Positions 855-59,399 of a stretch of DNA of 64,000 nucleotides are shown here, in pieces. How positions within the stretch are numbered: the first letter of the stretch is position 1; each line of letters starts with the position of its first letter. The notes below the pieces were generated by a model. That model saw nothing but the letters and a program-made list of their open reading frames with translations, was not told the origin of the DNA and made no database searches. This DNA comes from Patescibacteria group bacterium UBA4787 (GTDB lineage Bacteria > Patescibacteriota > Patescibacteriia > UBA2591 > UBA4787), in contig DHGX01000001.1 of NCBI GenBank assembly GCA_002402995.1, positions 151,073 to 215,072 on the forward strand, read 5' to 3'. The position numbers and the translations under genes were made by a program.

Positions 855-931
855 TGGTGGGCCTGGATGGACTCGAACCATCGACCCCGGCTTTATAAGA
901 GCCGTGCTCTAACCAACTGAGCTACAGGCCC
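855..931 (-). tRNA. tRNA-Ile with anticodon UAU, CCA encoded
   Basis: A manual cloverleaf on the minus strand fits well. Acceptor GGGCCTG/CAGGCCC. D-stem GCTC/GAGC. Anticodon stem CGGCT/AGCCG with loop CTTATAA (anticodon TAT). T-stem GATGG/CCATC with loop TTCGAGT. Discriminator A followed by CCA. Confidence 0.85.
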
Positions 932-15672: not shown

Positions 15673-17043
15673 ATGAAAAACCCAAAAATAATATTATTAA
15701 TTTTATTAATCGGCGCTTTATTGGTCAGTGGTTTTCAGTGCAAGCTTTTTCCCCAATCAAAGATTGTGGTTAATAAGGTTAAGCCTATTACTTTGAATTA
15801 TTGGCGCGTTAACGACGGGCCGGATAATTTTAGCGATATTATTTTAGCATTCCGTAAGGTTTATAGTCATATCAATATCAATTATCGGCAGTTTAGACTG
15901 GAAGAATACGAAATGGCCCTTTTGGAGGCTTGGGCTGAAGATCGGGGGCCGGATATTTTTTCTGTTCCGAACGCCTGGCTTGGGAAGTATGAAACAAAAA
16001 TTTTACCTATGCCTCAAGAAATTAATGTTGGTCGCCAAGTTTTGACAGGAACCATCAAAAAAGATTATAAAGTTATCTTAGAGACAAAAAAAATTCCTAC
16101 TACACGAGAATTTAAGGAGACTTATGTTGACACTGTTTTTCAGGATGTTTATCGGCAAAATAAATTATGGGGAGTACCTTTGACTCTTGATACTTTAGCT
16201 CTTTATTATAATCGCGATCTTTTAAATAGTGCGAAAATAGTTGACCCCCCGAAAACTTGGCAGGAATTCGTGGAAGACGTTAGATTAACCACAATAAAAG
16301 ATCGGACTGGAGACATAATTCAATCTGGTGTGGCAATGGGGACGGCTGATAATATACCGAACAGTATAGATGTTCTTTCTTTGTTAATGTTGCAGAACGA
16401 GACTCAAATGATCGCTCCTTCCGGAATTGGCACGGCCATGGAAAGTTCGTCATTGTCGGATAGTAATTATTATCCAGGAGAGGAAGCTTTGCGTTTTTAT
16501 ACGGACTTTGCTAACCCAACCAAAGAAACTTATTCTTGGAATAAAAAAATGCCAGACGCTTTAGAGATATTCGTTCAAGGGAAAAGCGCATTTTTTATCG
16601 GTGACTCGACTTATTTAGATATAATTAGAACAAGCGCGCCAAAATTAAACTTCGATATCGCTAAAATGCCGCAGATAGAGGGTTCAATTAGAGAGATAAA
16701 TTATGCTAATTATTGGGTTGAAGTCGCTGCTAAAAAAACAGTCTATCCGAATGAAGCATGGAATTTTCTTCTCTTTATGAGCGATCCGTTAAACGTTAAG
16801 TCTTATCTTAACCGCGCAAAACATCCTACAGCGCACAGAGCCTTGATCAAGGATCAGTTGGAAGACATAGACTTAGCGCCTTTTGTGAATGAAGTTTTAA
16901 CTGCTAGGTCGTGGTATTTAGGCAAAGATTATAGGGCCACAGGAGTATTCTTTAAACAAATGATAAACGATGTTTTAGACGGCAGAAAAAGTATTAAAGA
17001 GGCTATTAGTTTTTGCGCTCAACAAGTCAATCAAACTTATTAA
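15673..17043 (+). CDS. extracellular solute-binding protein, family-1-like (ABC-type), orphan
   Basis: A signal peptide is followed by an SBP_bac_1-like pattern (LNYWRVNDGPDNF...GPDIFSVPNAWLGKY). No permease or ATPase lies adjacent. Confidence 0.5.
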   Translation: MKNPKIILLILLIGALLVSGFQCKLFPQSKIVVNKVKPITLNYWRVNDGPDNFSDIILAFRKVYSHININYRQFRLEEYEMALLEAWAEDRGPDIFSVPNAWLGKYETKILPMPQEINVGRQVLTGTIKKDYKVILETKKIPTTREFKETYVDTVFQDVYRQNKLWGVPLTLDTLALYYNRDLLNSAKIVDPPKTWQEFVEDVRLTTIKDRTGDIIQSGVAMGTADNIPNSIDVLSLLMLQNETQMIAPSGIGTAMESSSLSDSNYYPGEEALRFYTDFANPTKETYSWNKKMPDALEIFVQGKSAFFIGDSTYLDIIRTSAPKLNFDIAKMPQIEGSIREINYANYWVEVAAKKTVYPNEAWNFLLFMSDPLNVKSYLNRAKHPTAHRALIKDQLEDIDLAPFVNEVLTARSWYLGKDYRATGVFFKQMINDVLDGRKSIKEAISFCAQQVNQTY

Positions 17044-17110: not shown

Positions 17111-17851
17111 ATGCATAACAAAAAAATAAAAATCATAATCGTCACTATTTTTTTGACTGGACTGGTCATTTCTCCTTTATTTGTTTTTGCTGAAACGGTT
17201 ATTTGTAACGGTGTTCCTGTTGAATGTGAAACAGGAGGATTGATTAGGAGTAAAGAGTGTGTTTGCTGCGGTGATTGTACTTTAACCGACGCTTTGGCGG
17301 TTTTTATCAATGTGGCAGATTTAATTTTAAAATATGTCGGCGTAGTTGCGCTTCTTATGTTGATCTTTGGCGGAGTTTTATGGATTTTGTCCGGCGGCAA
17401 CGAGAGCCAGATTAAAAAAGGCAAAGATGTTATAAAATATACTTTTTTGGGCATTATTATAATTTTTACCGCGTGGGTTATTGTCAATTTTGTGATTGAT
17501 AAGTTGGTGGTTGATAAATCAATTTTTCAAGGAACTTGGTGGGGCGGAAAAGAGAAAACCGATTGTTCTCAGACATGGAAAGACTGTATGGACTATGGCC
17601 ATATTGACGAAGGTGCGATTTGGGCACCCGGTTGTCAAAATGATAGCATTAGAGATGTACAAGAGAATTTAAATCGCCTTAATTGCGCGACTCCGAAATT
17701 AACAATTGACGGTTGTTTTGGTCCGCAAACCAGCTCCGCTTTATCCAAATTCCAGACAAATAAGGTCGTTGGTTCGGTTGGCGGCAGTTTGGATTGGCAA
17801 ACCTATGATGCTTTAATGGCCTCCGAGTCTAATAATTGTGAAGCGAAGTAA
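17111..17851 (+). CDS. pilin-fold (VirB2/TrbC-like) protein fused to a Cys-rich region and a C-terminal peptidoglycan-binding (PG_binding_1-like) domain
   Basis: A signal peptide is followed by the Cys-rich CNGVPVECETGG...CVCCGDC. The core FGGVLWILSGGNESQIKKGKD sits between two hydrophobic helices and is shared with the next three ORFs. The C-terminus CFGPQTSSALSKFQTNKVVGSVGGSLDWQTYDAL resembles PG_binding_1. Confidence 0.5.
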   Translation: MHNKKIKIIIVTIFLTGLVISPLFVFAETVICNGVPVECETGGLIRSKECVCCGDCTLTDALAVFINVADLILKYVGVVALLMLIFGGVLWILSGGNESQIKKGKDVIKYTFLGIIIIFTAWVIVNFVIDKLVVDKSIFQGTWWGGKEKTDCSQTWKDCMDYGHIDEGAIWAPGCQNDSIRDVQENLNRLNCATPKLTIDGCFGPQTSSALSKFQTNKVVGSVGGSLDWQTYDALMASESNNCEAK

Positions 17852-17875
17852 TTAAAATAATATATTAATAACCCA

Positions 17876-18247
17876 TTGTTTATTATGATGAAAAATAAGA
17901 ATAAACTTTTGCTGGCCCTCATCTTAATTTTAGTGGCTATTCCTGTTTTGGCTATCGCTGACAGCCAAGGCAGTGCTGAATTACCAAATCCTTTGGGCGA
18001 TACTAAAGATATACCGTCTTTAGTCGCCAACCTTATTAAAGTGGTTTTAGGCTTAGTCGGCGTTCTGGCTTTAGTGATGTTTATATACGGCGGTATTCTG
18101 TGGATGACTTCCGGTGGCAACGAACAAAAGATTAAGAAAGGAAAAGATACTCTGGTCTGGGCAACACTCGGTTTGGCGATTATTTTCTTTAGTTACGCGA
18201 TAGTTAATTTTGTTTTAGAAACCATTTTGACGAAAGTAAGACAATAA
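17876..18247 (+). CDS. VirB2/TrbC-like pilin-fold protein (paralog 2)
   Basis: A signal peptide is followed by a hydrophobic helix, then GGILWMTSGGNEQKIKKGKD, then a second hydrophobic helix. This is the VirB2/TrbC topology. Confidence 0.5.
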   Translation: MFIMMKNKNKLLLALILILVAIPVLAIADSQGSAELPNPLGDTKDIPSLVANLIKVVLGLVGVLALVMFIYGGILWMTSGGNEQKIKKGKDTLVWATLGLAIIFFSYAIVNFVLETILTKVRQ

Positions 18248-18248
18248 A

Positions 18249-18332
18249 GGGCATTAACCCAGAAGTAATGCCCTGTGTTATCCGCGCTCGCTCGGAAATG
18301 AAAATATATTTTCATTTCGCTCGCTTGATAAT
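18249..18332 (-). repeat. dispersed ~75-bp GC-box/palindrome repeat, copy A (inverted relative to copies B–D)
   Basis: The reverse complement contains TATCAAGCGAGCGAAATGAAAATATATTTTCATTTCCGAGCGAGCGCGGATAACACAGGG plus the gggcatta/taatgccc hairpin. Matches are at 36509..36583, 41728..41803 and 61497..61571. Confidence 0.7.
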
Positions 18333-18460
18333 AGACGGGAGTCAAATGGGTGTGGATAATTTTTATTGACGCTTTGCTCTTTTAACCCTACTATTAATAT
18401 ATAATTTATTTCTAATAAAAACGTCCCTTAATAAGGGCGGACTAAAAAGAGGCTTAAAAT

Positions 18461-18826
18461 ATGAAAAAGTATCTTCTCGCGACCCTTTTAACCATCTTTA
18501 TGGTGGTGCCTATCGCGGCTTTGTCGCAGACCAACAATTGGGAAATGGGTTTAACCCAGTTCCAAGGGCAGACCGGGTTGGGTAATCAGGATTTGCCTAC
18601 TACTATTGGCAAGATCGTGAATATCGTCCTAAGTTTCTTGGGTTTAATTGCCGTTGTAATCATCATCATCGGTGGCTTTATGTGGATGACTTCTGGTGGT
18701 AGTGAAGACAAAATTGGTGCCGCTAAGAAATTAATGATCAACGGTGTTATCGGCTTGCTCATTATTGTCGTTTCTTATGCCGCGGCGAACTTTATCGTTT
18801 CGAGATTAAAAACCGTTGCCGGCTAG
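18461..18826 (+). CDS. VirB2/TrbC-like pilin-fold protein (paralog 3)
   Basis: The core GGFMWMTSGGSEDKIGAAKK lies between two hydrophobic helices. A signal peptide is present. Confidence 0.5.
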   Translation: MKKYLLATLLTIFMVVPIAALSQTNNWEMGLTQFQGQTGLGNQDLPTTIGKIVNIVLSFLGLIAVVIIIIGGFMWMTSGGSEDKIGAAKKLMINGVIGLLIIVVSYAAANFIVSRLKTVAG

Positions 18827-18861
18827 TTATCTAATCGAAATTTAAACGCATTTTTGGTTTT

Positions 18862-19320
18862 ATGGTTTATTTAACTAATAAAATCAATTTTTATAACAAA
18901 ACAAGAGCGAATTATCATTTCGCTCTTGTTTTTATGGTTATTGTCTTGACCGGTTTATCTTTAATTATCGCGCCGTCTGTTTTAGCTCAAGAAAATCCAT
19001 TGGATGCTCTACAAAGCACCGCTCAAACCGCTGGTCTTGCTGGCGAAACAGATATAACCGTGATTATCGGTCGTATTATTAATGTTGTTCTAAGTCTATT
19101 GGGTTTAATTGCTGTTATAATCATCATCATCGGTGGCTTTATGTGGATGACTTCTGGTGGAGATGAAACTAAAATTAAAAAAGCCAAAGGCTTAATGCTC
19201 AATGGCATAATTGGCTTGTTGATTATAGTTATTTCTTATACTGCAGCCACGTTTATTATTGGAAGATTGCAAGAAGTCGGCCAAGGCAATGGCGCAGGAA
19301 GCGGTCCCATCACTCCTTAA
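18862..19320 (+). CDS. VirB2/TrbC-like pilin-fold protein (paralog 4); likely true start about 18934
   Basis: The core GGFMWMTSGGDETKIKKAKG is present. The internal Met MVIVLTGLSLIIAPSVLA gives a proper signal peptide. The C-terminal tail is Gly-rich (GQGNGAGSGPITP). Confidence 0.5.
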   Translation: MVYLTNKINFYNKTRANYHFALVFMVIVLTGLSLIIAPSVLAQENPLDALQSTAQTAGLAGETDITVIIGRIINVVLSLLGLIAVIIIIIGGFMWMTSGGDETKIKKAKGLMLNGIIGLLIIVISYTAATFIIGRLQEVGQGNGAGSGPITP

Positions 19321-19355
19321 ATTTAATTATTTTTATTATTTTTTCGAATAGAGAA

Positions 19356-19398
19356 AAAGAGAGGCATTTTTGCCTCTCTTTATATTTATTTTTTTATC
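19356..19398. terminator. bidirectional intrinsic terminator between the convergent pilin gene and the lipoprotein gene
   Basis: A perfect 10-bp stem aaagagaggc/gcctctcttt with loop attttt is flanked by A-run and T-run. Confidence 0.7.
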
Positions 19399-20029
19399 GA
19401 ACGTAGAAATCCCAATCATACCATTTATTGCCAAAAAACACTTCTCGTTTCTCGGCGTTGGCTTTCCACTTGACCGTTTCGGTTTTCATGATTTCCATGT
19501 GGTTGTTGAGATGGTCGATGACAAAGACGTTCTGGCCGACAGGAATAGATAGTTCTGCCATCTGTTTAGGGCAAAGCCTGAGCGGCTTTGCTGTTTTGCG
19601 GCTAAAGTCGGCACCGGTTCTGATCTCGACATAATGGCCGGAAGTGTTGATAATCACGCCTCGAACAAAAGATGTTTTACCAGAAAGCCCATTTTTGAAA
19701 GCTTCGGCTTCAGCTTTTATCATTTCGGCTTCAGCTTTTATCATTTCGGCTTCGGCAGAGGCGATTATTCTCTGATTCTCGAGTTCTGCGTCCAGTTTTT
19801 GTTTCTGCATTTCCCGCATGAGCCGTGTGTTTTCGGCTATCTGTGAAGAATCGAATGCGGTAAGGCCACCGTCACGTTCGTACGAAGACGAAATTGGGTC
19901 TAGGGTGGTTTTCTGGCTTACTTTGATACTGGCGCATCCGGGAACGATAGCGATGAGTACGCCGAGCACCAAGGTCACCAAAATAACCAGAGATGTTTTT
20001 TTGAACGAGAACATGGCTTTTTCCTCCAA
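19394..20029 (-). CDS. hypothetical lipoprotein with internal AEAEMIKAEAE tandem repeat
   Basis: A signal peptide with a lipobox-like VPGC is present. A 21-bp DNA tandem repeat at 19704..19756 encodes the repeated AEAEMIK motif. Confidence 0.4.
   Translation of the reverse strand: MEEKAMFSFKKTSLVILVTLVLGVLIAIVPGCASIKVSQKTTLDPISSSYERDGGLTAFDSSQIAENTRLMREMQKQKLDAELENQRIIASAEAEMIKAEAEMIKAEAEAFKNGLSGKTSFVRGVIINTSGHYVEIRTGADFSRKTAKPLRLCPKQMAELSIPVGQNVFVIDHLNNHMEIMKTETVKWKANAEKREVFFGNKWYDWDFYVR
19704..19756. repeat. 21-bp tandem repeat (about 2.5 copies) inside the lipoprotein gene
   Basis: The unit tcggcttcagcttttatcatt is repeated twice, followed by a partial copy. Confidence 0.6.
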
Positions 20030-20236: not shown

Positions 20237-21535
20237 TTATCGATAAAATAGAAAAATTAAAAGCAGATAAAAATTGAATAAAGCAGACAGGATAATAGCG
20301 ATTTTCATGCCTGTTTTTAGTTCTTGGTTTTTTTCAAAATAGTTTTTCATTAAAATCCAAAAAAGAAGAGGCAGAAAATCTAAAGCATAGCGATAACCCA
20401 TGGTTACATAACCAGCCCCGCCATAATAGAGGAAAAGGAGTGCGGCAATTATAGATATGTTAATAATTAATATTTTGGAGAGTCGATCTCTATATTTTAA
20501 AAAGAAAAAATATAAAAAATAAGGCGAAGTAACAAAAATACTCATACCATAAGGATTTGGTTTTATGAAAGGCAGTTGGAAGGTGGGCGAACTTCCTTGA
20601 TAGACTAACTGCGGTCCACTAAGAAAAAAATAATAGACATTGGTTGGCAAATGCTCGAGACTTAAAATTCCTTTATAGTCGCGAGCCTTCAGTAACAATG
20701 GACTTAAAACATATTGGTTTTTATAGCCGCCCTCTAGAATATTATCAAAACGCAGATAATTGTAGGTTATTAATAAAAAAGAGGCGATAATTAACGGCAT
20801 TAAAAGAGAAATTAAATTTTTTATTTTTTGTTTTTTTTCTTTTCGAGAAATGAAAATTATTTCCAAAATAAAAAAAATAATATTGAGGCCGGCGGTTAAA
20901 CGAGTGGCAAGCATTAAGGCCAAGAATATACCAATAAGCCAATAACGTTTTTTGCCCAAATATTCATAAACACTCAACAAGCCGAGAAGAACTGCAATAA
21001 CCTGTGCGAAATACCAGCTCCAAGGAATAAAAATTACTCCGATTAACATGGTGGCAAAACAAAATGCGAAAGCCCAATACCATGAATCGTTTTTTGTGTA
21101 ATTCAGGCGTTGAGCGATTTTAAAACAGATAAACGCAATAAATAAAACCAAGATAATCTGTAAAAATCCTTGATAAAAAAATAAATTAAAGATATTTGAC
21201 AAAAAAACAAAAGGCAAAAGAACAACGGCCGGAAAAGGACCGAGCGGCCAATAATAATGACCGTGATAGAGAGTAGTGTCATCGCTCCAGGAAAATCCCG
21301 GCATTTCCAAAAAATATAATCTACCGTGCAAAAATGATTTAGCCAAAAAAGAAAAATGCTGTTCGCCTTTAATGGTTATATTGGTGGCTATACTGATAGC
21401 CAAAAAGATTATAAACAAAATAATAATTAAATTGCGCGAAACAGAATATTTTGTCCAAAGATTTTTAATTTTTGAAGTTATCAAGGACATCGCGATGGAA
21501 CTTAAGGCGGAAAATAGTTTTAAAAAATTCAACAA
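20237..21535 (-). CDS. polytopic membrane protein, possible GT-C-like glycosyltransferase
   Basis: It has more than 10 predicted TM helices and lies in a cluster with a GT2 Ppm-like gene and a GT-C-like gene. It overlaps the upstream gene by 71 nt as annotated, so the true start is probably further downstream. Confidence 0.3.
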   Translation of the reverse strand: MLNFLKLFSALSSIAMSLITSKIKNLWTKYSVSRNLIIILFIIFLAISIATNITIKGEQHFSFLAKSFLHGRLYFLEMPGFSWSDDTTLYHGHYYWPLGPFPAVVLLPFVFLSNIFNLFFYQGFLQIILVLFIAFICFKIAQRLNYTKNDSWYWAFAFCFATMLIGVIFIPWSWYFAQVIAVLLGLLSVYEYLGKKRYWLIGIFLALMLATRLTAGLNIIFFILEIIFISRKEKKQKIKNLISLLMPLIIASFLLITYNYLRFDNILEGGYKNQYVLSPLLLKARDYKGILSLEHLPTNVYYFFLSGPQLVYQGSSPTFQLPFIKPNPYGMSIFVTSPYFLYFFFLKYRDRLSKILIINISIIAALLFLYYGGAGYVTMGYRYALDFLPLLFWILMKNYFEKNQELKTGMKIAIILSALFNFYLLLIFLFYR

Positions 21536-22190
21536 TTTCTTTTTTGCCGAGTTTTGATTGCCCGGCCCGCCGATCCGTAAAAACGACCGGCATCTCTTTA
21601 ATTTTAAGATTGTTTTTTTCCGCTAAATAAATTATTTCTTCAAGCCAAGCGTAGCCGTTGCTTTCAAGATTTTGAAAATTTATTTTTTGCAGGGCTTCTT
21701 TTCTAAAACAGCGGAAGCCGGCTGTTAGATCCTTGGTTTTTATATTAAGCGCTAAACGCGCGAAAGACATAGCTCCCCAAGAACAAAATTTACGCCACAA
21801 ATTCCAGTTGATAATTTGTCCGCCTTTGATTTTCCTTGAACCGATTACTATATCATACCCTTTTAGGCACGCGGTTATTAAGCGAGGTATATCTTTGGGA
21901 TTATGCGATAAATCAGCATCCATTTGAATAATCAGATCAGCGTTATTCTGGATTGCCAGGCTAAATCCTTGTTTATACGCGCTGCCAATGCCTTGTTTGG
22001 CGGACCGATGAATAACCGAAAGATTATAATTTTCAACTAATTTTTCGGCCAAATCGCCGGTTCCGTCAGGAGAATTATCATCAACTATAATGACCCGCGA
22101 ATTTTCAATTTTCAGCGCGAAAATTTCTTTGACCAAATTTTCCAAATTTTCTTTTTCGTTGTAAGTAGGAATAACTATGTATATTTTCAT
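21465..22190 (-). CDS. GT2 polyprenol-phosphate glycosyltransferase (Dpm1/Ppm1-like)
   Basis: MKIYIVIPTYNEKENL...VIIVDDNSPDGTGDLAEKL...QMDADLSHNP is the classic soluble Dpm1-type GT2 (DxD). Confidence 0.75.
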   Translation of the reverse strand: MKIYIVIPTYNEKENLENLVKEIFALKIENSRVIIVDDNSPDGTGDLAEKLVENYNLSVIHRSAKQGIGSAYKQGFSLAIQNNADLIIQMDADLSHNPKDIPRLITACLKGYDIVIGSRKIKGGQIINWNLWRKFCSWGAMSFARLALNIKTKDLTAGFRCFRKEALQKINFQNLESNGYAWLEEIIYLAEKNNLKIKEMPVVFTDRRAGQSKLGKKEIVEFFKTIFRLKFHRDVLDNFKN

Positions 22191-22213
22191 TTTTGCAAAT
22201 TGATTAATTTTTT

Positions 22214-23881
22214 CTACCTTAGATTATAAACAGCCGCTTCTTCGTCTTCGTATGTTTTAAAGAAAAAAGGAGAATGGTCAAGCTTCAATTTGAGTGGCTT
22301 ATAGGAAGAGCCAAACTCTCTTTTTTCCAGCAAAAACCAGAAAGAGCGGAAGTCGTTTTTTACAATTTGCGATATTTCTTGAGCACCGATTTTATTCTGG
22401 CTGATTTTTTGCCATTTCTCAAATAAATCTTTACTAAAGGCGTACATAAAAGTTTGGTCCAGGCCGTTAATATAATAATGTTCTGTGTCAAAATAAAATA
22501 AAAATGGAAAAGTATCCCAGCGTTGCTGGTAAATAATTTCTTTGGCCGGAATATTATTCTTTATCCACCAAGTTGTTTTTTGCAAATGTGTATAGGGGAT
22601 ACTTTCATTTAAACTTTTTTGGTATTCATTTTTTATTTGCAAGAAAGATTGGTCAAAAAAGCTTTTTATGCCAAAACCGATAATGCCGATTAAAATAAGA
22701 CTTGTGCCAAAAAGAGCCGCGGATGATTTGCCATGGAATAAGTTTTTAATTTTATTTTTAATCTCAGGCCAATTAGCTACTCGGAATAAATTATCTAAAA
22801 CCAAAGCCGAAAAAATAAGAGCCAGGGGCGCGAAGTATTCAATATTCCGCCGGGCTTTTAGGGTGTAAAGCAAGAAAAAGAAAGACAATAAAGCCAAAAA
22901 CCAAGTTTTTTTGCTTTGTTTTTTGGCATTGGACGCGAAATAGGCCACAGCCACCATCCACAATAAAATAATAGGGAAATTAGTAACAAGAAAAAATGTC
23001 GGATCAGAAGGATACCATTCCGCACCCACACCGATTTTGGCGTAATAATTGATAATGGCGATGTGGGTTAATTCAAACCAGTGGAAATAATAAGTTTTTG
23101 GGAAATAAGGATTTAAGGTGAGCCCCAAAATAATGCCCGAAAGAACAGATGCTAAAATAATTATATTAGGCCGCGAAAATATATTTTTTATCAAAAATCG
23201 TGCGTTGATTTTTTCTCGGTTTTGCAAGATTGAATAAAATAATTTTCCCAAGATATAAAAAATAACAGCTAATATTAGTAGAGGAAAGGCTCCGTATAGC
23301 CAAACATAAATAAAGCTGATGATTGCTAATGGCCGCCATTTTCCCCGGCTTATAAAATAAATAGCCAAAAATAAAACAATTATAGAAACAGCCGGCGCTC
23401 GCGTTAAGGAAATCCGCATTAAAAAACCATTGCTTAAAAAAAGGATTAAAATATATAAAAAGGGTTTCCGAACCTTCCATTTTTTAAGTAACCAATAAAC
23501 AGTTAAAAAAACCAAACTAGCCAAAAGGATCGCCGCCAATTTGGTTTTAATGAGCGGTTCAATTTCCAAACCAAAAGAATCCAAATTGGTGGGTGAAGGA
23601 ATTAACAAGAAGGGGATTAAAATAATATGATAACCAAAATGTTGATTGACAAAAAAATTATTATAAGTCGTATATTGCGTCCACGGGAAATTTTGAATAA
23701 TGCCCTGGTCTTTTATCATCATAGCCATTTTGGTGTGGAAAAAACCGTCCGGACACAACAAAGATGGCGTGTTCATAATCCACGTCAAAGCCAAAAAGAG
23801 AAATAAAAAAACCAGCCAATATTCTAAATGGTTGATTTCTACGATTTTTTTTATTTTTAATATTATGTTTTTAATAGACAT
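22214..23881 (-). CDS. GT-C-fold membrane glycosyltransferase (ArnT/PMT-like)
   Basis: It is a 555-aa polytopic protein. Its N-terminal loop DGFFHTKMAMMIKDQG resembles the DE/DD catalytic loop of GT39/GT83 enzymes. Confidence 0.45.
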   Translation of the reverse strand: MSIKNIILKIKKIVEINHLEYWLVFLFLFLALTWIMNTPSLLCPDGFFHTKMAMMIKDQGIIQNFPWTQYTTYNNFFVNQHFGYHIILIPFLLIPSPTNLDSFGLEIEPLIKTKLAAILLASLVFLTVYWLLKKWKVRKPFLYILILFLSNGFLMRISLTRAPAVSIIVLFLAIYFISRGKWRPLAIISFIYVWLYGAFPLLILAVIFYILGKLFYSILQNREKINARFLIKNIFSRPNIIILASVLSGIILGLTLNPYFPKTYYFHWFELTHIAIINYYAKIGVGAEWYPSDPTFFLVTNFPIILLWMVAVAYFASNAKKQSKKTWFLALLSFFFLLYTLKARRNIEYFAPLALIFSALVLDNLFRVANWPEIKNKIKNLFHGKSSAALFGTSLILIGIIGFGIKSFFDQSFLQIKNEYQKSLNESIPYTHLQKTTWWIKNNIPAKEIIYQQRWDTFPFLFYFDTEHYYINGLDQTFMYAFSKDLFEKWQKISQNKIGAQEISQIVKNDFRSFWFLLEKREFGSSYKPLKLKLDHSPFFFKTYEDEEAAVYNLR

Positions 23882-43717: not shown

Positions 43718-45049
43718 ATGACAAAAATTAAAATAAAAAAAGATACACTGCTGATTTTTTTGTCAATTATTTTTTATAAAATAATTCTTGACATATCTTA
43801 TTATTTTGTGGTTTCTCGGGCTTGGGACTATGCTGGATACGGCATTCAGGCCCTTTGGGACTACGTGGGTTATAATTTTATATTTAACAATGTAAAAATT
43901 TTTGAATCATATTTTCTCCTTTTAATTGTTTTGATATTTGTTCCTAAATCATCAAAAAAGCTTTCTAATATTATAACTTGGTTATTAGTATTGTTCGCCT
44001 ATATCCCCATGCTTACAATCTATGCCATGAAAGACGGCGCTAGATTATATATTTTGGCCATAACCTGTTTTTGGCTTATAGTTTTCCTTTTATTAAAATT
44101 TTTGCCGAACATCCACTTGCCATTCTTAAAAAAAACTCAAGCCAAGACAATTCATTATGCTATTTTTATTATTTTTAGTGGAATGGCGATCATCTCAATT
44201 TTAAAATATTTTGGTCTTGTTTTTAATTTAAACCTTAAGACGATATACGAAACCAGGACATTATTCTATGCCAATCTTCGTGGTCCTGCTATAGAATATT
44301 TGTTTAATTGGCTGGCCCTCGTTGTTAATCCTGTTTTTTTATTTATCTTTTTCAAAAAGAAAAAATGGCTTTTGTCTGTTTTGTCGCTAGCTATTCAGAT
44401 TCTTATTTTTTCTGCTACCGGCAATAAAATTTATCTTTTTGCTATACCTTATATAGTGTTTGTCGCTTTGTTGGTTAACCGTAGGCGTCCATTTGTTTGT
44501 GCTTCTTTAGTTCTTTCAATTGTTGTAGGGGTGGGGATATTGTCTTATTTTTTATTGGGAGATGTTTGGTTAACTGCTCTTTTTACTCACAGGACTTTAT
44601 TTACCCCAGCTCTGCTTTCTTTTCATTATTATGATTTTTTTTCACAAAACAATTTTATCTATTTATCATCGCAAAGAATTTTTAGAAATTTTATTAATTA
44701 TCCATACGATCTTGACCCGCCACATCTCATTAGCACGACGTATTTTAATCGTCCGCAAATGAGCTCTAATAACGGCATATTCGCCGATGCTTATATGAAT
44801 TTCGGTTTTTGGGGCTTAATTATTTGGGCTATTCTTTTGGCGATATTCTTGAAAGCAATAGATTCTTTTTCTAGGAATAAAGATAAACAGATTTGTTTAG
44901 TTGCTATAGGAATTTCCGTTATGCTTTTTACGAACATGCCGTTCTTAACATCGCTGATAACGGGGGGATTATTGTTGGGTTTGATCATCTTATATTTATT
45001 GCCACCATTAAATAACCAATCAACCAATATCCGACAACCGTATAATTGA
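43718..45049 (+). CDS. polytopic membrane protein, possible Wzy-like oligosaccharide polymerase/ligase
   Basis: It has about 10-12 TM helices and sits in a glycan locus. There is no sequence-level proof. Confidence 0.3.
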   Translation: MTKIKIKKDTLLIFLSIIFYKIILDISYYFVVSRAWDYAGYGIQALWDYVGYNFIFNNVKIFESYFLLLIVLIFVPKSSKKLSNIITWLLVLFAYIPMLTIYAMKDGARLYILAITCFWLIVFLLLKFLPNIHLPFLKKTQAKTIHYAIFIIFSGMAIISILKYFGLVFNLNLKTIYETRTLFYANLRGPAIEYLFNWLALVVNPVFLFIFFKKKKWLLSVLSLAIQILIFSATGNKIYLFAIPYIVFVALLVNRRRPFVCASLVLSIVVGVGILSYFLLGDVWLTALFTHRTLFTPALLSFHYYDFFSQNNFIYLSSQRIFRNFINYPYDLDPPHLISTTYFNRPQMSSNNGIFADAYMNFGFWGLIIWAILLAIFLKAIDSFSRNKDKQICLVAIGISVMLFTNMPFLTSLITGGLLLGLIILYLLPPLNNQSTNIRQPYN

Positions 45050-45058
45050 TAAAATGAA

Positions 45059-46393
45059 ATGTTACATAAAATAATTTTTAAAACAGTTTATTTATTGAAT
45101 AGGCCAGGACTAATTGGCTATTTCAATAAATTTCAAAAAACACAGTGGCTGGATTTACAGCAATTGCAAGCCGAACAAAATCGACAGCTACGCAAATTGG
45201 TTAATTTTGCTTATCAATCCGTTCCTTATTATACTAAATTATTTAGCCAACTTAATATTCGGCCAAGCGATATAGACGCAATTAAGGATTTGGAGAAACT
45301 TCCGATTTTGACTAAAAAAATTATTAGAGAGCATTGGGAAGACCTGACACCCATTAATATCAAGGAAATGAATTATCTTAACAGTACAACAGGTGGCTCG
45401 ACTGGCGTGCCTTGTAGATATAGAATGTCGCACGAAGATTATAAAAAGGGGGTAGCCTTGATGTATCGCGGTTGGACTTATGCTGGTTATAACTTGGGTG
45501 ATAAGGTGGCAACCATCGCTGGATCATCACTTATCCCTACAATCGGTTCTAGTTTAAAAAATAAAATTCAGGAATTCGGTCTGAATATTAGAAATTATTC
45601 TTCGTATGAAATGAGCGATAAAAATCTTTTTAAATATTTTTGTGAAATTAATAAGTGGCGCCCGGATTTTATCCGAGGATACGCCTCCTCGGTTTATTTA
45701 TTCGCTCGATTTTTAAAATCTCATAACTTAAAATTGACAGTCCGGCCAAGAGCAGTTTTTACTACTGCCGAAAAGTTGTTTGCTGCGCAGCGCGCGCTGA
45801 CAGAAGAAGTCTTTGACACAAAAGTTTTTGATACTTATGGCTTAAATGACGGAGGAGTCTCGGCTTTTGAGTGCGAAAAACATAATGGCATGCATATTGA
45901 TGCGGAAAGGGCTATTCTAGAAACTGTGGACGAGAAAAATAAATCAATTACCGGGCAAACAGGGAAAATATTGGCCACTGATTTATATAATTACGCAATG
46001 CCATTTATACGTTACGATACAGAAGATTTGGGTATTATTTCTGACACGCCATGTTCTTGCGGACGAAAGACTTTTTTGTTAAAAGAAATAACCGGCCGGA
46101 TAACCGATTATTTAAATTTAAATAATATTATTATCGGCAGTCCGGTATTGACCGTGTTGATGGGTAAATTCGACATTGAACAATATCAAATTATTCAAAA
46201 TACCCCTTCTTCAATTGTTTGTAAAATAATAAAAGGCAAAGGTTATAACGAGGCAAGAGACGAAGATCTTATCCGCAAATCTTTTTATGTTCACGTTGGA
46301 GAGATTGGCATTAAGTTTGTTTATGCTGAATTTATCCCGGTCGAAGGGATTAGAAAATATAAATTTATTATTAATAATGTAAATACTATTTAA
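45059..46393 (+). CDS. CapK/PaaK-like adenylate-forming enzyme
   Basis: The AMP-binding-like motif LNSTTGGSTGVP is present. The size and locus context are typical of CapK-family proteins. Confidence 0.5.
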   Translation: MLHKIIFKTVYLLNRPGLIGYFNKFQKTQWLDLQQLQAEQNRQLRKLVNFAYQSVPYYTKLFSQLNIRPSDIDAIKDLEKLPILTKKIIREHWEDLTPINIKEMNYLNSTTGGSTGVPCRYRMSHEDYKKGVALMYRGWTYAGYNLGDKVATIAGSSLIPTIGSSLKNKIQEFGLNIRNYSSYEMSDKNLFKYFCEINKWRPDFIRGYASSVYLFARFLKSHNLKLTVRPRAVFTTAEKLFAAQRALTEEVFDTKVFDTYGLNDGGVSAFECEKHNGMHIDAERAILETVDEKNKSITGQTGKILATDLYNYAMPFIRYDTEDLGIISDTPCSCGRKTFLLKEITGRITDYLNLNNIIIGSPVLTVLMGKFDIEQYQIIQNTPSSIVCKIIKGKGYNEARDEDLIRKSFYVHVGEIGIKFVYAEFIPVEGIRKYKFIINNVNTI

Positions 46394-57101: not shown

Positions 57102-59399
57102 ATGATCCACGCCATTAAGATAAAACCACAAAGAATATCAGAAATTTTAGTATTTTTTTTGTTGATTGGTTTATATATTTATAATATAACTAAATATTTT
57201 TGGACATTGCCGACACCAAGCGATCCGCTTGAGTATTTAGGTTCGGCAGCCTGGGGGACTGCCTATGGATTCTGGCCCTTTCTCGCCCGCTTAGCTTTAG
57301 CCGTTAACCTAAGAATTTTCGTTCTATTGTTCTCCAAGGCCTATTTTGCGGGAATGTTCTATATCGGTTTTATCAACACCGCCATCTTAATTGTGGCCAT
57401 GCTTTGGGCTTTTAGAAAGTCAGGATTCTGGGCAGCTTTATTCGTCGGTATTTTCATGAACTCTTCTTATCTGATGCTCGGCTGGGCTACCTATATTTAT
57501 CCGGATCAAACCGTCGCCCTTTATTCGTTGTTGGCGTTTATTTGTTTCTTTTCGGAGTTTAAAATTTATCGTTTCATTAACGGGACTTTTCTGGCAGGTT
57601 TTTTTACTGGACTCGCCATACTTTCTAAGGCTACGGGTTTTGGTATATTGCTGTTTTTTGTTATATATCTTATTTATAAAAAAGAATGGAGGAAAATAAA
57701 ACAATTTGCTATTGGTCTGTTTATTGGACTGACCATTGTCGTGTTCTTGTTCTGTCTTTTGTATAATTACCAGTCTTTTTTAGATGCTTTTGTGGAATTT
57801 TTTTATGGTTCGCTAGGGCGTAATTTGGCAAAAATTTATACTAATTTAGGTGCAGGATATTTTCACGAGATCATTTCATCAATAAAATACTTTCCATTTG
57901 TCGCACTATTTATTTTAATCGGCGCTTATAAAAATCAGAAAACCAAGAATTTATTATTCTTGGCTTGGTTCAATATTTTTTTGGTTTATCTTTTAAGGTC
58001 TTCGGCACCTTCTATCCCAACCTATATTTATACTGCTTATATTTTTACTGTTTTAGGAGTATCTATCTATTTAGCCGATGTTTTTGTGTCGAAACAGAGC
58101 AATCGACCAATAGTCAATTTGTCAATTTTGCGTAAATACAGTTTTGTTTTATTTTTTATAATCGTGCTTATTTTAATGGTCGTTGGTCTGCGATTGGGCA
58201 TTAAATATCATTCCGTAGAAAATTATGACTATAGCTATAACTATTTGAAGCCGCTTGATATTTACGAAACAACTAGTTTCCCATACCCTAATATTATAAA
58301 AATATTATATACTTTTATACCCATTCTGCTTTTAGTTTGTTTATTGGGGATTGAGATTCTGAGGCGAAAGATCTTTATTGTTTTATTTATTATTTTGACT
58401 GCTTTCGGCTCCTCTTTTTTCAATGGCGGCCTTGCTTATCAAAAGGCGAAGTATGACAGAGAACGGGCAGATTTTTTCTATAGAACCGCCCCAATTTTAA
58501 ATTTAGTAAAAGACAAAACCTTTAGTGTTTACGTCGAAGCCTGGAACCAGCAATCTTATTCCAATCGGCTCTTGTGGGTCTATCGTTTATTTTTTGACAA
58601 TAAATATCAAAGAGTTTTCAAAGATCAATACAAAGCGCAAAAATTAAACGCCGACGAGATCGAAAGTAGTATAATTTATATAGACAAAGAAAACGATATT
58701 TTGTCAAAAGCCAAGAATGGACGAATCTTGACTGATCGTCCGGATATAGTCCATAAATATTTTCCTTCCGCCATAGAGGTACAGAGGTTGACAGAATTTA
58801 ATAATTTAAGAGATTTGGTCGTGCTTGATATTTCTTCACAGTATTCTATAAAGAAGACGGTTAAATTTTTATTCCAAGAAGATTTTTCAAAATGGCCGAA
58901 CGAGACTAAGAAATTTAGTTCCTCTGAAATAGAGAAAATTTTGCCCCCGCTTAAAATATTGGGTTTAAGGGGGAATCATTTCAAATTTTTGCGGCAAAAT
59001 TCAGGAGAAGATAATTATGTCAGGATTAATTTGAATAAAATAAATAACAGAGAAAAACCAGAAATTAATCTTGGTTATATTGTTAGCCTCCTAGAAATTT
59101 TAGAAAAAGACAAAAACCAACCATTATTTGTCACCCTTGAGGTGGTGGCACGAACTTCTGCTAATCAAAAGAATCAACCCCCCTTTATTTTTATTCAAGA
59201 CAAGGTTAATGAGGACTGGGATTTGACTAAGATTAATATGCCGGGAGATAGATGGGGAGAATACGTTGCAACTAAAAAATTAAGAGACGGCGCTAAAGAT
59301 TTTTTGGCTGGTATAGGATTTTTGCCAAGTTCCGTAGAGAGCTATTTAGACGTTAAAAGCATAAAAATATCCGTTTGGTCTGTGGCTGACAACAAATAA
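57102..59399 (+). CDS. large GT-C-fold membrane glycosyltransferase (ArnT/PMT-like) with a C-terminal extracytoplasmic domain of about 350 aa
   Basis: It has about 12 TM helices followed by a soluble domain. It is translationally coupled to the GT2 gene (TAAgATG). Confidence 0.4.
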   Translation: MIHAIKIKPQRISEILVFFLLIGLYIYNITKYFWTLPTPSDPLEYLGSAAWGTAYGFWPFLARLALAVNLRIFVLLFSKAYFAGMFYIGFINTAILIVAMLWAFRKSGFWAALFVGIFMNSSYLMLGWATYIYPDQTVALYSLLAFICFFSEFKIYRFINGTFLAGFFTGLAILSKATGFGILLFFVIYLIYKKEWRKIKQFAIGLFIGLTIVVFLFCLLYNYQSFLDAFVEFFYGSLGRNLAKIYTNLGAGYFHEIISSIKYFPFVALFILIGAYKNQKTKNLLFLAWFNIFLVYLLRSSAPSIPTYIYTAYIFTVLGVSIYLADVFVSKQSNRPIVNLSILRKYSFVLFFIIVLILMVVGLRLGIKYHSVENYDYSYNYLKPLDIYETTSFPYPNIIKILYTFIPILLLVCLLGIEILRRKIFIVLFIILTAFGSSFFNGGLAYQKAKYDRERADFFYRTAPILNLVKDKTFSVYVEAWNQQSYSNRLLWVYRLFFDNKYQRVFKDQYKAQKLNADEIESSIIYIDKENDILSKAKNGRILTDRPDIVHKYFPSAIEVQRLTEFNNLRDLVVLDISSQYSIKKTVKFLFQEDFSKWPNETKKFSSSEIEKILPPLKILGLRGNHFKFLRQNSGEDNYVRINLNKINNREKPEINLGYIVSLLEILEKDKNQPLFVTLEVVARTSANQKNQPPFIFIQDKVNEDWDLTKINMPGDRWGEYVATKKLRDGAKDFLAGIGFLPSSVESYLDVKSIKISVWSVADNK

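Follow-up and report, generated by a model that had tools for sequence, protein, structure and literature searches.

A VirB2-like pilin of Patescibacteria fused to a predicted peptidoglycan-binding domain: a candidate wall link for a four-pilin array

An envelope without an outer-membrane core complex poses the question of how a VirB2 fibre is kept in place. Published work shows Patescibacteria to be monoderms whose VirB2-like pilin arrays are essential (PMC10633639, PMC12102498, PMC12857230), and they are the only known monoderms that pair a Gram-positive-type type IV secretion system (T4SS) with VirB2-like pilins. A gene that bears on this question is found in Patescibacteria group bacterium UBA4787, in a stretch of 64,000 nucleotides of contig DHGX01000001.1 (assembly GCA_002402995.1, positions 151,073 to 215,072), referred to here as the window. 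This gene, PIL1 (17111..17851, +), is the first of four tandem pilin genes (17111-19320) and encodes a VirB2-like pilin hairpin set between a cysteine-rich module and a PG_binding_1 (PF01471) domain. PIL1 is a real, conserved fusion gene of Patescibacteria, and its product probably ties the four-pilin structure to a cell wall. A conserved pilin with its own peptidoglycan-binding (PG) domain is a concrete candidate for the wall link or, alternatively, for host-wall recognition.

The PIL1 gene starts with ATG and encodes 246 amino acids plus a stop codon; this open reading frame (ORF), put forward together with two motifs in a preliminary description made from the letters of this DNA, agrees exactly with the ORF list, and both motifs are present in the sequence. 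The protein begins with a Sec-type signal peptide, residues 1-27 (MHNKKIKIIIVTIFLTGLVISPLFVFA then ETV; hydrophobic residues 5-27, then V-F-A; 17111..17191, +), for which cleavage is presumed after residue 27. This is followed by a Cys-rich module, putatively extracytoplasmic, residues 28-58 (17192..17284, +), containing C32, C39, C50, C52, C53 and C56 and the motif CxCCGDCxLxD; by the pilin hairpin, residues 59-132 (17285..17506, +), which consists of two long hydrophobic helices with the basic loop SGGNESQIKKGKD between them; by a linker, residues 133-174 (17507..17632, +), holding C152 and C159; by the PG_binding_1 three-helix domain, residues 175-237 (17633..17821, +), with C175, C192, DGCFGPQT (200-207) and GGSLDWQT (224-231); and by a C-terminal tail (17822..17851, +, stop codon included), holding the conserved C243.

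In the Pfam scan, the hairpin matches T4SS_pilin (PF18895) over residues 59-128 with 42.1 bits (E 8.9e-11; cut-off 26.6), and the C-terminal domain matches PF01471 over residues 177-235 with 26.2 bits (E 9.2e-6). The latter score lies above the cut-off of 23, the threshold on which the preliminary description had let its PG-binding assignment depend; it is marginal for PIL1 alone and solid at the family level. The protein has no catalytic domain, and the NCBIfam model NF045849 scores under its cut-off. Both PG_binding_1 motifs, D-G-x-F/Y-G-x-x-T and the second repeat G-x-V-x-x-x-T, are present in PIL1. They are kept across its homologues (DGxFGxxT and GxVxxxT), and D200, G201, G204, T207, F214 and G225 are invariant or nearly so.

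An AlphaFold2 model of PIL1 built with only five close sequences was unusable, its predicted local distance difference test (pLDDT) score being 40; a rerun with 51 sequences gave a full-length model with a mean pLDDT of 84.2. In this model, the signal peptide forms a helix (2-23), the Cys-rich module forms a β-hairpin (25-42) and a short helix, the pilin hairpin has helices at 58-93 and 98-132, the linker is partly disordered (with low confidence at 146-149), and the C-terminal domain has helices at 178-189, 205-218 and 229-237 with pLDDT of about 90. When the C-terminal domain was compared with the PDB using Foldseek, it superposed on the N-terminal PG-binding domain of SleB (6tci) with a TM score of 0.79 and a root-mean-square deviation of 1.4 Å over 67 residues. 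Further fold matches (accessions 4c2c and 5nm7 among them) were 4xxt, SleC, 1lbu, 5tv7, CtpB, a phage endolysin and 4g54, the last of these being the periplasmic domain of the type II secretion system (T2SS) protein EpsAB/ExeA, and the matches in BFVD were wall-binding domains of endolysins. The profile of the domain matches the solved PG-binding domains 4xxt, phiKZ gp144 (3bkh), 1lbu and SleB with E values of 9e-12 to 1e-10; the single PIL1 sequence, searched against the PDB by phmmer, reached a best E of 0.14. Binding of peptidoglycan by the C-terminal domain is a well-supported prediction.

Is the fusion genuine? Four close homologues, 73-86% identical to PIL1 and drawn from Logan, ENA and NCBI assemblies, have the same architecture without interruption, and the contigs of two of them repeat the gene neighbourhood of the window. 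A profile search of 1.84 billion cluster representatives returned pilin and PG domain in one stretch in about 30 of the top 150 representatives. Thirty-three fused homologues were scanned, 28 of which are merely 27-38% identical to PIL1: PF18895 is matched by 33/33 and PF01471 by 31/33 (best E 1.2e-16). A second database search returned the precomputed Pfam architecture PF18895 + PF01471 for 18 of 24 matches, and one fused homologue, from a Kerfeldbacteria metagenome-assembled genome (MAG), carries the NCBI label 'peptidoglycan-binding protein'. The fused architecture occurs in at least 15 species-level genomes; a further homologue search with the alignment of the C-terminal domain alone returned just two short proteins.

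Purifying selection acts on each module. By the Nei-Gojobori method, applied to PIL1 and two orthologues, the ratio of nonsynonymous to synonymous substitution rates (dN/dS) is 0.19-0.22 overall, 0.03-0.13 in the hairpin, 0.13 in the PG domain and 0.28-0.32 in the N-terminal Cys module. Of all modules, the hairpin is conserved best: distant members are 38% identical there, versus 16-20% in signal peptide and linker, a constraint that exceeds the need of a plain membrane anchor.

An assembly or frameshift artefact, or a chance match to PG_binding_1, could be suspected from a single-sequence PF01471 score just 3 bits over the cut-off and from the poor AlphaFold run with five sequences. The uninterrupted ORF common to ENA, Logan and NCBI assemblies, its recurrence in distant species, the 31/33 homologues, the low dN/dS of every module, and the strong profile and fold matches to solved PG-binding domains leave a negligible probability for an artefact, and it was rejected. 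The three-part fusion in a single ORF is genuine, and the merger of two frames by a frameshift, which the preliminary description had raised against itself, was not borne out. The same description had called the fusion unusual; it belongs to a recurrent Patescibacteria family rather than being a one-off. As a separate observation, the assemblies of L004 and L028 (the same MAG), L009, L011, L024 and L002 break in or just past PIL1, and in one MAG PIL1 is split over two contigs; such breaks may reflect strain-level variation of the ectodomain.

PIL1 has three hydrophobic stretches (5-27, 61-97 and 106-135), and the loop between the last two is K-rich, which by the positive-inside rule would place the loop in the cytoplasm and both ends, the PG domain included, outside, as in VirB2. 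Contact with the wall is possible in this predicted topology.

All 12 cysteines of PIL1 lie in the predicted extracytoplasmic segments, and the membrane and loop segments have none. Six lie within residues 32-56 (C32, 39, 50, 52, 53 and 56, i.e., six in 25 residues) and six within 152-243 (C152, 159, 175, 192, 202 and 243), figures that replace the seven in 30 N-terminal residues and the four at the C-terminus counted in the preliminary description. The Cys content is 4.9%, versus 0.89% in the proteins of the window (binomial P ~3e-6), and Cys is absent from all three neighbouring paralogues, PIL2, PIL3 and PIL4. All 12 residues are invariant in the four close homologues. In the 51-sequence alignment of PIL1 homologues, from which covariation was read, C56, C159 and C175 are invariant, and C243 is present in 98%. 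C152 and C202 occur together in 40 sequences and are both missing in 11, never singly (51/51 both or neither), and these 11 hold an alternative co-occurring pair in columns 196 and 210. C192 and C243 co-occur in 48 sequences; totals are even in 46 of the 51, and the smallest family members have exactly eight cysteines (32, 56, 152, 159, 175, 192, 202 and 243). About 50 of the top 150 representatives of the family (about a third) have the motif CxCCGxC, unfused pilins among them. Analysis of the disulfide pattern, which the preliminary description had suggested, yields a proposed set of pairs, C152-C202, C192-C243, C159-C175 and C32-C56, together with two further pairs at the N-terminus. For the CxCCGDC module, metal binding in the manner of a zinc knuckle was also considered and ranked below disulfides, because the cysteines are all outside the membrane, their totals are mostly even, and their columns covary pairwise.

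PIL1 does not stand alone. It is followed by PIL2 (17876..18247, +; 123 amino acids from TTG, the true start likely being an ATG a few codons further on), which matches PF18895 with 45.6 bits and TrbC/VirB2 (PF04956) with 35.5 bits (cut-off 27.9); by PIL3 (18461..18826, +; 121 amino acids; PF18895, 39 bits); and by PIL4 (18862..19320, +; 152 amino acids; PF18895, 33.7 bits). The array is closed by a bidirectional terminator-like hairpin at 19347..19390 (inverted repeat I1), with an 11-pair stem and a T-run on both strands. The four paralogues are 29-51% identical to one another. A scan with a 10-sequence subset of the PIL1 alignment, taking one genome per species, returned 79 related loci, essentially all from Patescibacteria-type MAGs. 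By hidden Markov models and blastp, about 27 of them share a cassette in the order PBP1A(-)...SBP_bac_1(+)-PIL1-PIL2-PIL3-PIL4(+)-GT2(-)-555-amino-acid protein(-)-YebC, in which SBP stands for solute-binding protein and GT2 for a family 2 glycosyltransferase.

Within four-gene arrays (L001-L031), positions 1, 2 and 3 are mutual best matches, i.e., orthologous, in 18/18 cases, and PIL2 is the most conserved member (49-72% identical in L005-L031, 83-85% in the closest relatives). A decorated pilin, where there is one, always holds position 1. Pilin paralogues of Patescibacteria have been reported as highly variable, and this has been read, by analogy with antigenic variation, as aiding adaptation to host strains (PMC12102498). 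Such free variability was not borne out at positions 1-3 in these 18 arrays. Their stable position-specific orthology is easier to reconcile with a heteromeric structure of fixed roles than with antigenic variation.

Further features of the array may be recorded. PIL3 and PIL4 have in common a 96-nucleotide core (18620-18715 and 19081-19176) of 86% DNA identity, the proteins being 51% identical overall, which could mean that gene conversion has taken place or that the core was duplicated recently. A 17-nucleotide inverted repeat lies over the stop codon of PIL2 (18240-18282), and a gap of 213 nucleotides follows (18248-18460), with a promoter-like site at 18366-18394. Because of this repeat, gap and promoter-like site, SBP-PIL1-PIL2 and PIL3-PIL4 may be separate or attenuated transcription units.

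What, then, does PIL1 do? In our preferred reading, held tentatively and at somewhat less than an even chance, PIL1 is one specialised subunit encoded by a VirB2-like four-gene set, and its PG domain tethers the structure to the cell's own sacculus. After export by Sec and loss of its signal peptide, PIL1 would lie in the membrane as a hairpin of two helices, its basic loop facing the cytoplasm and its two ends facing outwards. Its outer N-terminus would be a small disulfide knot. At its outer C-terminus, a flexible linker of about 20-40 residues would carry the three-helix PG_binding_1 domain, with the six cysteines of this ectodomain (linker, domain and tail) forming three stapling disulfides. 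The hairpin would co-assemble with the undecorated PIL2-4, of which PIL2 is probably the major subunit, and the PG domain would bind peptidoglycan non-covalently, so that the structure, or the site where it is assembled, is held on the sacculus. Such a tether would be a plausible substitute for the outer-membrane core complex, which the monoderm cell lacks. PG_binding_1 is already known from a secretion machine, in the periplasmic domain of EpsAB/ExeA (4g54). The basal anchor or adaptor guessed at in the preliminary description agrees with this reading as far as we infer an anchor to the cell's own wall; the data do not separate base from tip or own wall from host wall.

Several observations limit this reading or count against it. 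The profile of the pilin core found no relative among PDB sequences, and the disulfide pairing proposed for PIL1 is drawn from covariation. By fold, the hairpin has a weak match to the archaeal conjugation pilus of Aeropyrum (8dfu; TM score 0.60, E 2.6, Foldseek). Genes for VirB4, VirD4, VirB6 and VirB3 were not found within the 64-kb window, nor did the 25 most frequent families in a scan of 40 large, unlabelled proteins encoded nearby at the related loci include any T4SS gene. The link of the array to a T4SS is by homology only, because no T4SS genes were found in the window or among the listed neighbours, and the array would depend on a T4SS encoded elsewhere. About 12 of the 27 orthologous position-1 pilins have no PG domain and end in a 20-residue tail or small Cys knots (CPGxxxxCC type); a wall tether is therefore not universally required, which argues against an indispensable anchor. 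Related pilin hairpins, moreover, bear huge Ig-like ectodomains of the sort typical of adhesins.

The hairpin is found in several other settings. Giant proteins of 900-2,380 amino acids with an N-terminal T4SS_pilin hairpin are encoded at L037 11876-18664, L058 9842-16072, L041 3957-12431 and L066 15-7163; three giant hairpin proteins that were scanned (903, 2,076 and 2,262 amino acids) have Big_5/TIG Ig-like domains, and such proteins may be pilin-anchored adhesins. Six others (P0006, P0009, P0014, P0020, P0024 and P0030), of 500-820 amino acids, have 6-8 tandem T4SS_pilin hairpins and nearly no Cys, and look like covalently concatenated pilins. With ectodomains so varied attached to it, the hairpin serves across the phylum as a general carrier of extracellular modules, and the PG-binding version is one recurrent variant.

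These carriers bear on the idea that PIL1 is a host-directed adhesin, built in first, at the distal tip or on the fibre surface, and gripping the peptidoglycan of the host, a serious alternative though a less likely one. The decoration of position-1 pilins varies by lineage, as is typical of contact proteins: a PG domain (in 15 of the ~27 cassettes), Cys knots, N-terminal extensions (long on the first pilin after the SBP in Parcubacteria-type arrays) or none. Adhesin-like Big_5/TIG ectodomains of up to 2,262 amino acids on related hairpins, the phage endolysin wall-binding domains (which target foreign walls) among the closest structural relatives of the C-terminal domain, and the suitability of disulfide-rich ectodomains for exposed proteins point the same way, as does the need of Southlakia for its T4SS and pilins in epibiotic growth (PMC10633639). 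Diderm or S-layered hosts, however, do not expose their peptidoglycan; purifying selection acts on the PG domain, with no sign of diversifying selection; and the short linker holds the domain near the hairpin.

The gene ahead of PIL1 raises another possibility. The cassette is led by a gene for a 456-amino-acid solute-binding protein (15673..17043, +; SBP_bac_1, PF01547, 61 bits), which has distant MalE-like sugar-binding relatives in the PDB; its neighbours in the window include neither an ABC permease nor an ABC ATPase. Its orthologue is about 50% identical across the ~27 cassette loci, and an orthologue 32-90% identical lies directly upstream of the pilin array in 49/85 related loci, whose lineages include Parcubacteria, Komeilibacteria, Uhrbacteria and Kerfeldbacteria. 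The distance from SBP stop to pilin start is at most about 25 nucleotides in ~30 of the 46 measurable loci, with four overlaps of 4-20 nucleotides. This linkage across many lineages suggests that the arrays do more than conjugation-like secretion.

PIL1 might instead act outside any pilus, with the hairpin as a mere membrane anchor and SBP-PIL1-4 as a T4SS-independent envelope complex; PIL1 could, for example, be a wall tether that keeps a nutrient-capturing, sugar-binding protein in place. Besides the abutting or overlapping stop and start codons of the SBP-led cassette, this is favoured by a neighbourhood of housekeeping and envelope genes (PBP1A, GT2, PMT_2/DUF2079 and Mur ligase), with no T4SS ATPase seen in the window or among the listed neighbours at related loci, and no published visualisation was found of a pilus built from PF18895 proteins. 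It is nonetheless unlikely: PIL2 scores above the TrbC/VirB2 cut-off, the hairpin is conserved far beyond a generic anchor, and homologous arrays of Saccharibacteria lie inside an essential T4SS cluster (PMC10633639, PMC12857230). In any case, virB4 is reported close to the pilin genes in just 1,135 of 1,948 Patescibacteria assemblies, with about 40% of pilin genes lying away from it (PMC12102498). More speculative, and less likely still, is that the operon of SBP, decorated pilin and three plain pilins encodes a Patescibacteria-specific, T4SS-independent organelle, in which a wall-anchored VirB2-like fibre or conduit and a sugar-binding protein would serve nutrient capture from the host, the PG domain of PIL1 being the wall anchor.

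Beyond the array, envelope glycosylation genes adjoin it convergently in the window (20237-23881, -) and also in L083-L085. They comprise a polyprenyl-phosphate GT2, a multi-transmembrane protein (PMT_2 or DUF2079 in relatives) and the conserved 555-amino-acid protein, which has no family match; a link with glycosylation of pilin or wall is possible. Between PIL4 and the glycosyltransferase genes is a gene (19394-20029, -) for a membrane-anchored protein of 211 amino acids with a AEAEMIKAEAEMIKAEAEAF repeat, which looks like a lineage-specific insertion because no counterpart lies there in the close relatives L001 and L028. Further along, sugar-nucleotide and polysaccharide genes form a long cluster on a single strand at 37727-63018 (with epimerases, a DegT aminotransferase, a UDP-GlcNAc 2-epimerase and a pyruvyl transferase), with large proteins without a family match at 43718-45049, 45059-46393 and 57102-59399. 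The Rfam matches in the window are two tRNAs alone. A tRNA-Ile with anticodon TAT lies at 855-931 (-); this tRNA is uncommon in bacteria, in which AUA is usually read by a lysidine-modified CAU tRNA. Many GTDB-representative MAGs (L006, L008-L010, L012, L014, L015 and others) titled 'uncultured Gammaproteobacteria' or 'Pseudomonadales' hold the Patescibacteria-type cassette in the gene order of the window, and the organism names in these record titles look wrong.

What is new here can be separated from what is already known. VirB2-like arrays of Patescibacteria and PG_binding_1 are both known, and the fusion is visible in precomputed Pfam annotations. In the papers searched, no description was found of the PF18895-PF01471 fusion, the extra cysteines, the fixed four-gene order or the SBP-led operon, and the survey text in PMC12102498 mentions neither an SBP nor a PG-binding fusion. 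The fixed gene order speaks less for antigenic variation than for a heteromer whose subunits have set roles, and a soluble ectodomain of ~110 residues and a predicted disulfide map offer testable handles.

In comparison with known systems, the array resembles the VirB2/TrbC pilins and the arrays of Patescibacteria (Wang et al. 2023, PMC10633639; Quinonero-Coronel et al. 2025, PMC12102498) in its Sec signal peptide, two hydrophobic helices and short basic loop, in its matches to PF18895 and PF04956, and in its tandem divergent paralogues (four here, 2-11 tandem genes reported in PMC12102498). It differs in three respects: each end of PIL1 bears a folded ectodomain, while the VirB2 pilins known so far are bare and ~70-130 residues long; the array sits behind an SBP gene in a housekeeping neighbourhood rather than in a T4SS cluster; and positions 1-3 of arrays of the window type are position-specific orthologues across species, unlike freely varying pilin sets.

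The C-terminal domain, in turn, is like the PF01471 modules of SleB, phiKZ gp144, the Streptomyces Zn DD-peptidase and CtpB in its three-helix bundle and DGxFGxxT/DGxVGxxT repeats; unlike them, it is fused to a membrane or pilus hairpin and not to a hydrolase, and it has four to six extra conserved cysteines (predicted disulfide staples) that the solved PF01471 relatives lack. In ExeA/GspA-EpsAB of the T2SS, as predicted for PIL1, PF01471 lies outside the cytoplasm on a membrane-anchored part of a machine that spans the envelope. The PF01471 domain of ExeA/GspA is thought to tie the T2SS machine to the sacculus. ExeA, unlike PIL1, is an assembly factor of diderms linked to an AAA+ ATPase and not a pilin, and the homology is limited to the PG domain. 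A larger, specialised subunit encoded beside plain ones can also be seen in GspK and the PilY1-type tip subunits (T2SS and type IV pili) and in the basal pilin of sortase pili, where it provides the tip of the fibre or its attachment to the wall. Their folds and assembly chemistry are unrelated, so that this analogy is one of logic only: sortase pili are covalently linked to peptidoglycan, whereas the attachment of PIL1 would be non-covalent.

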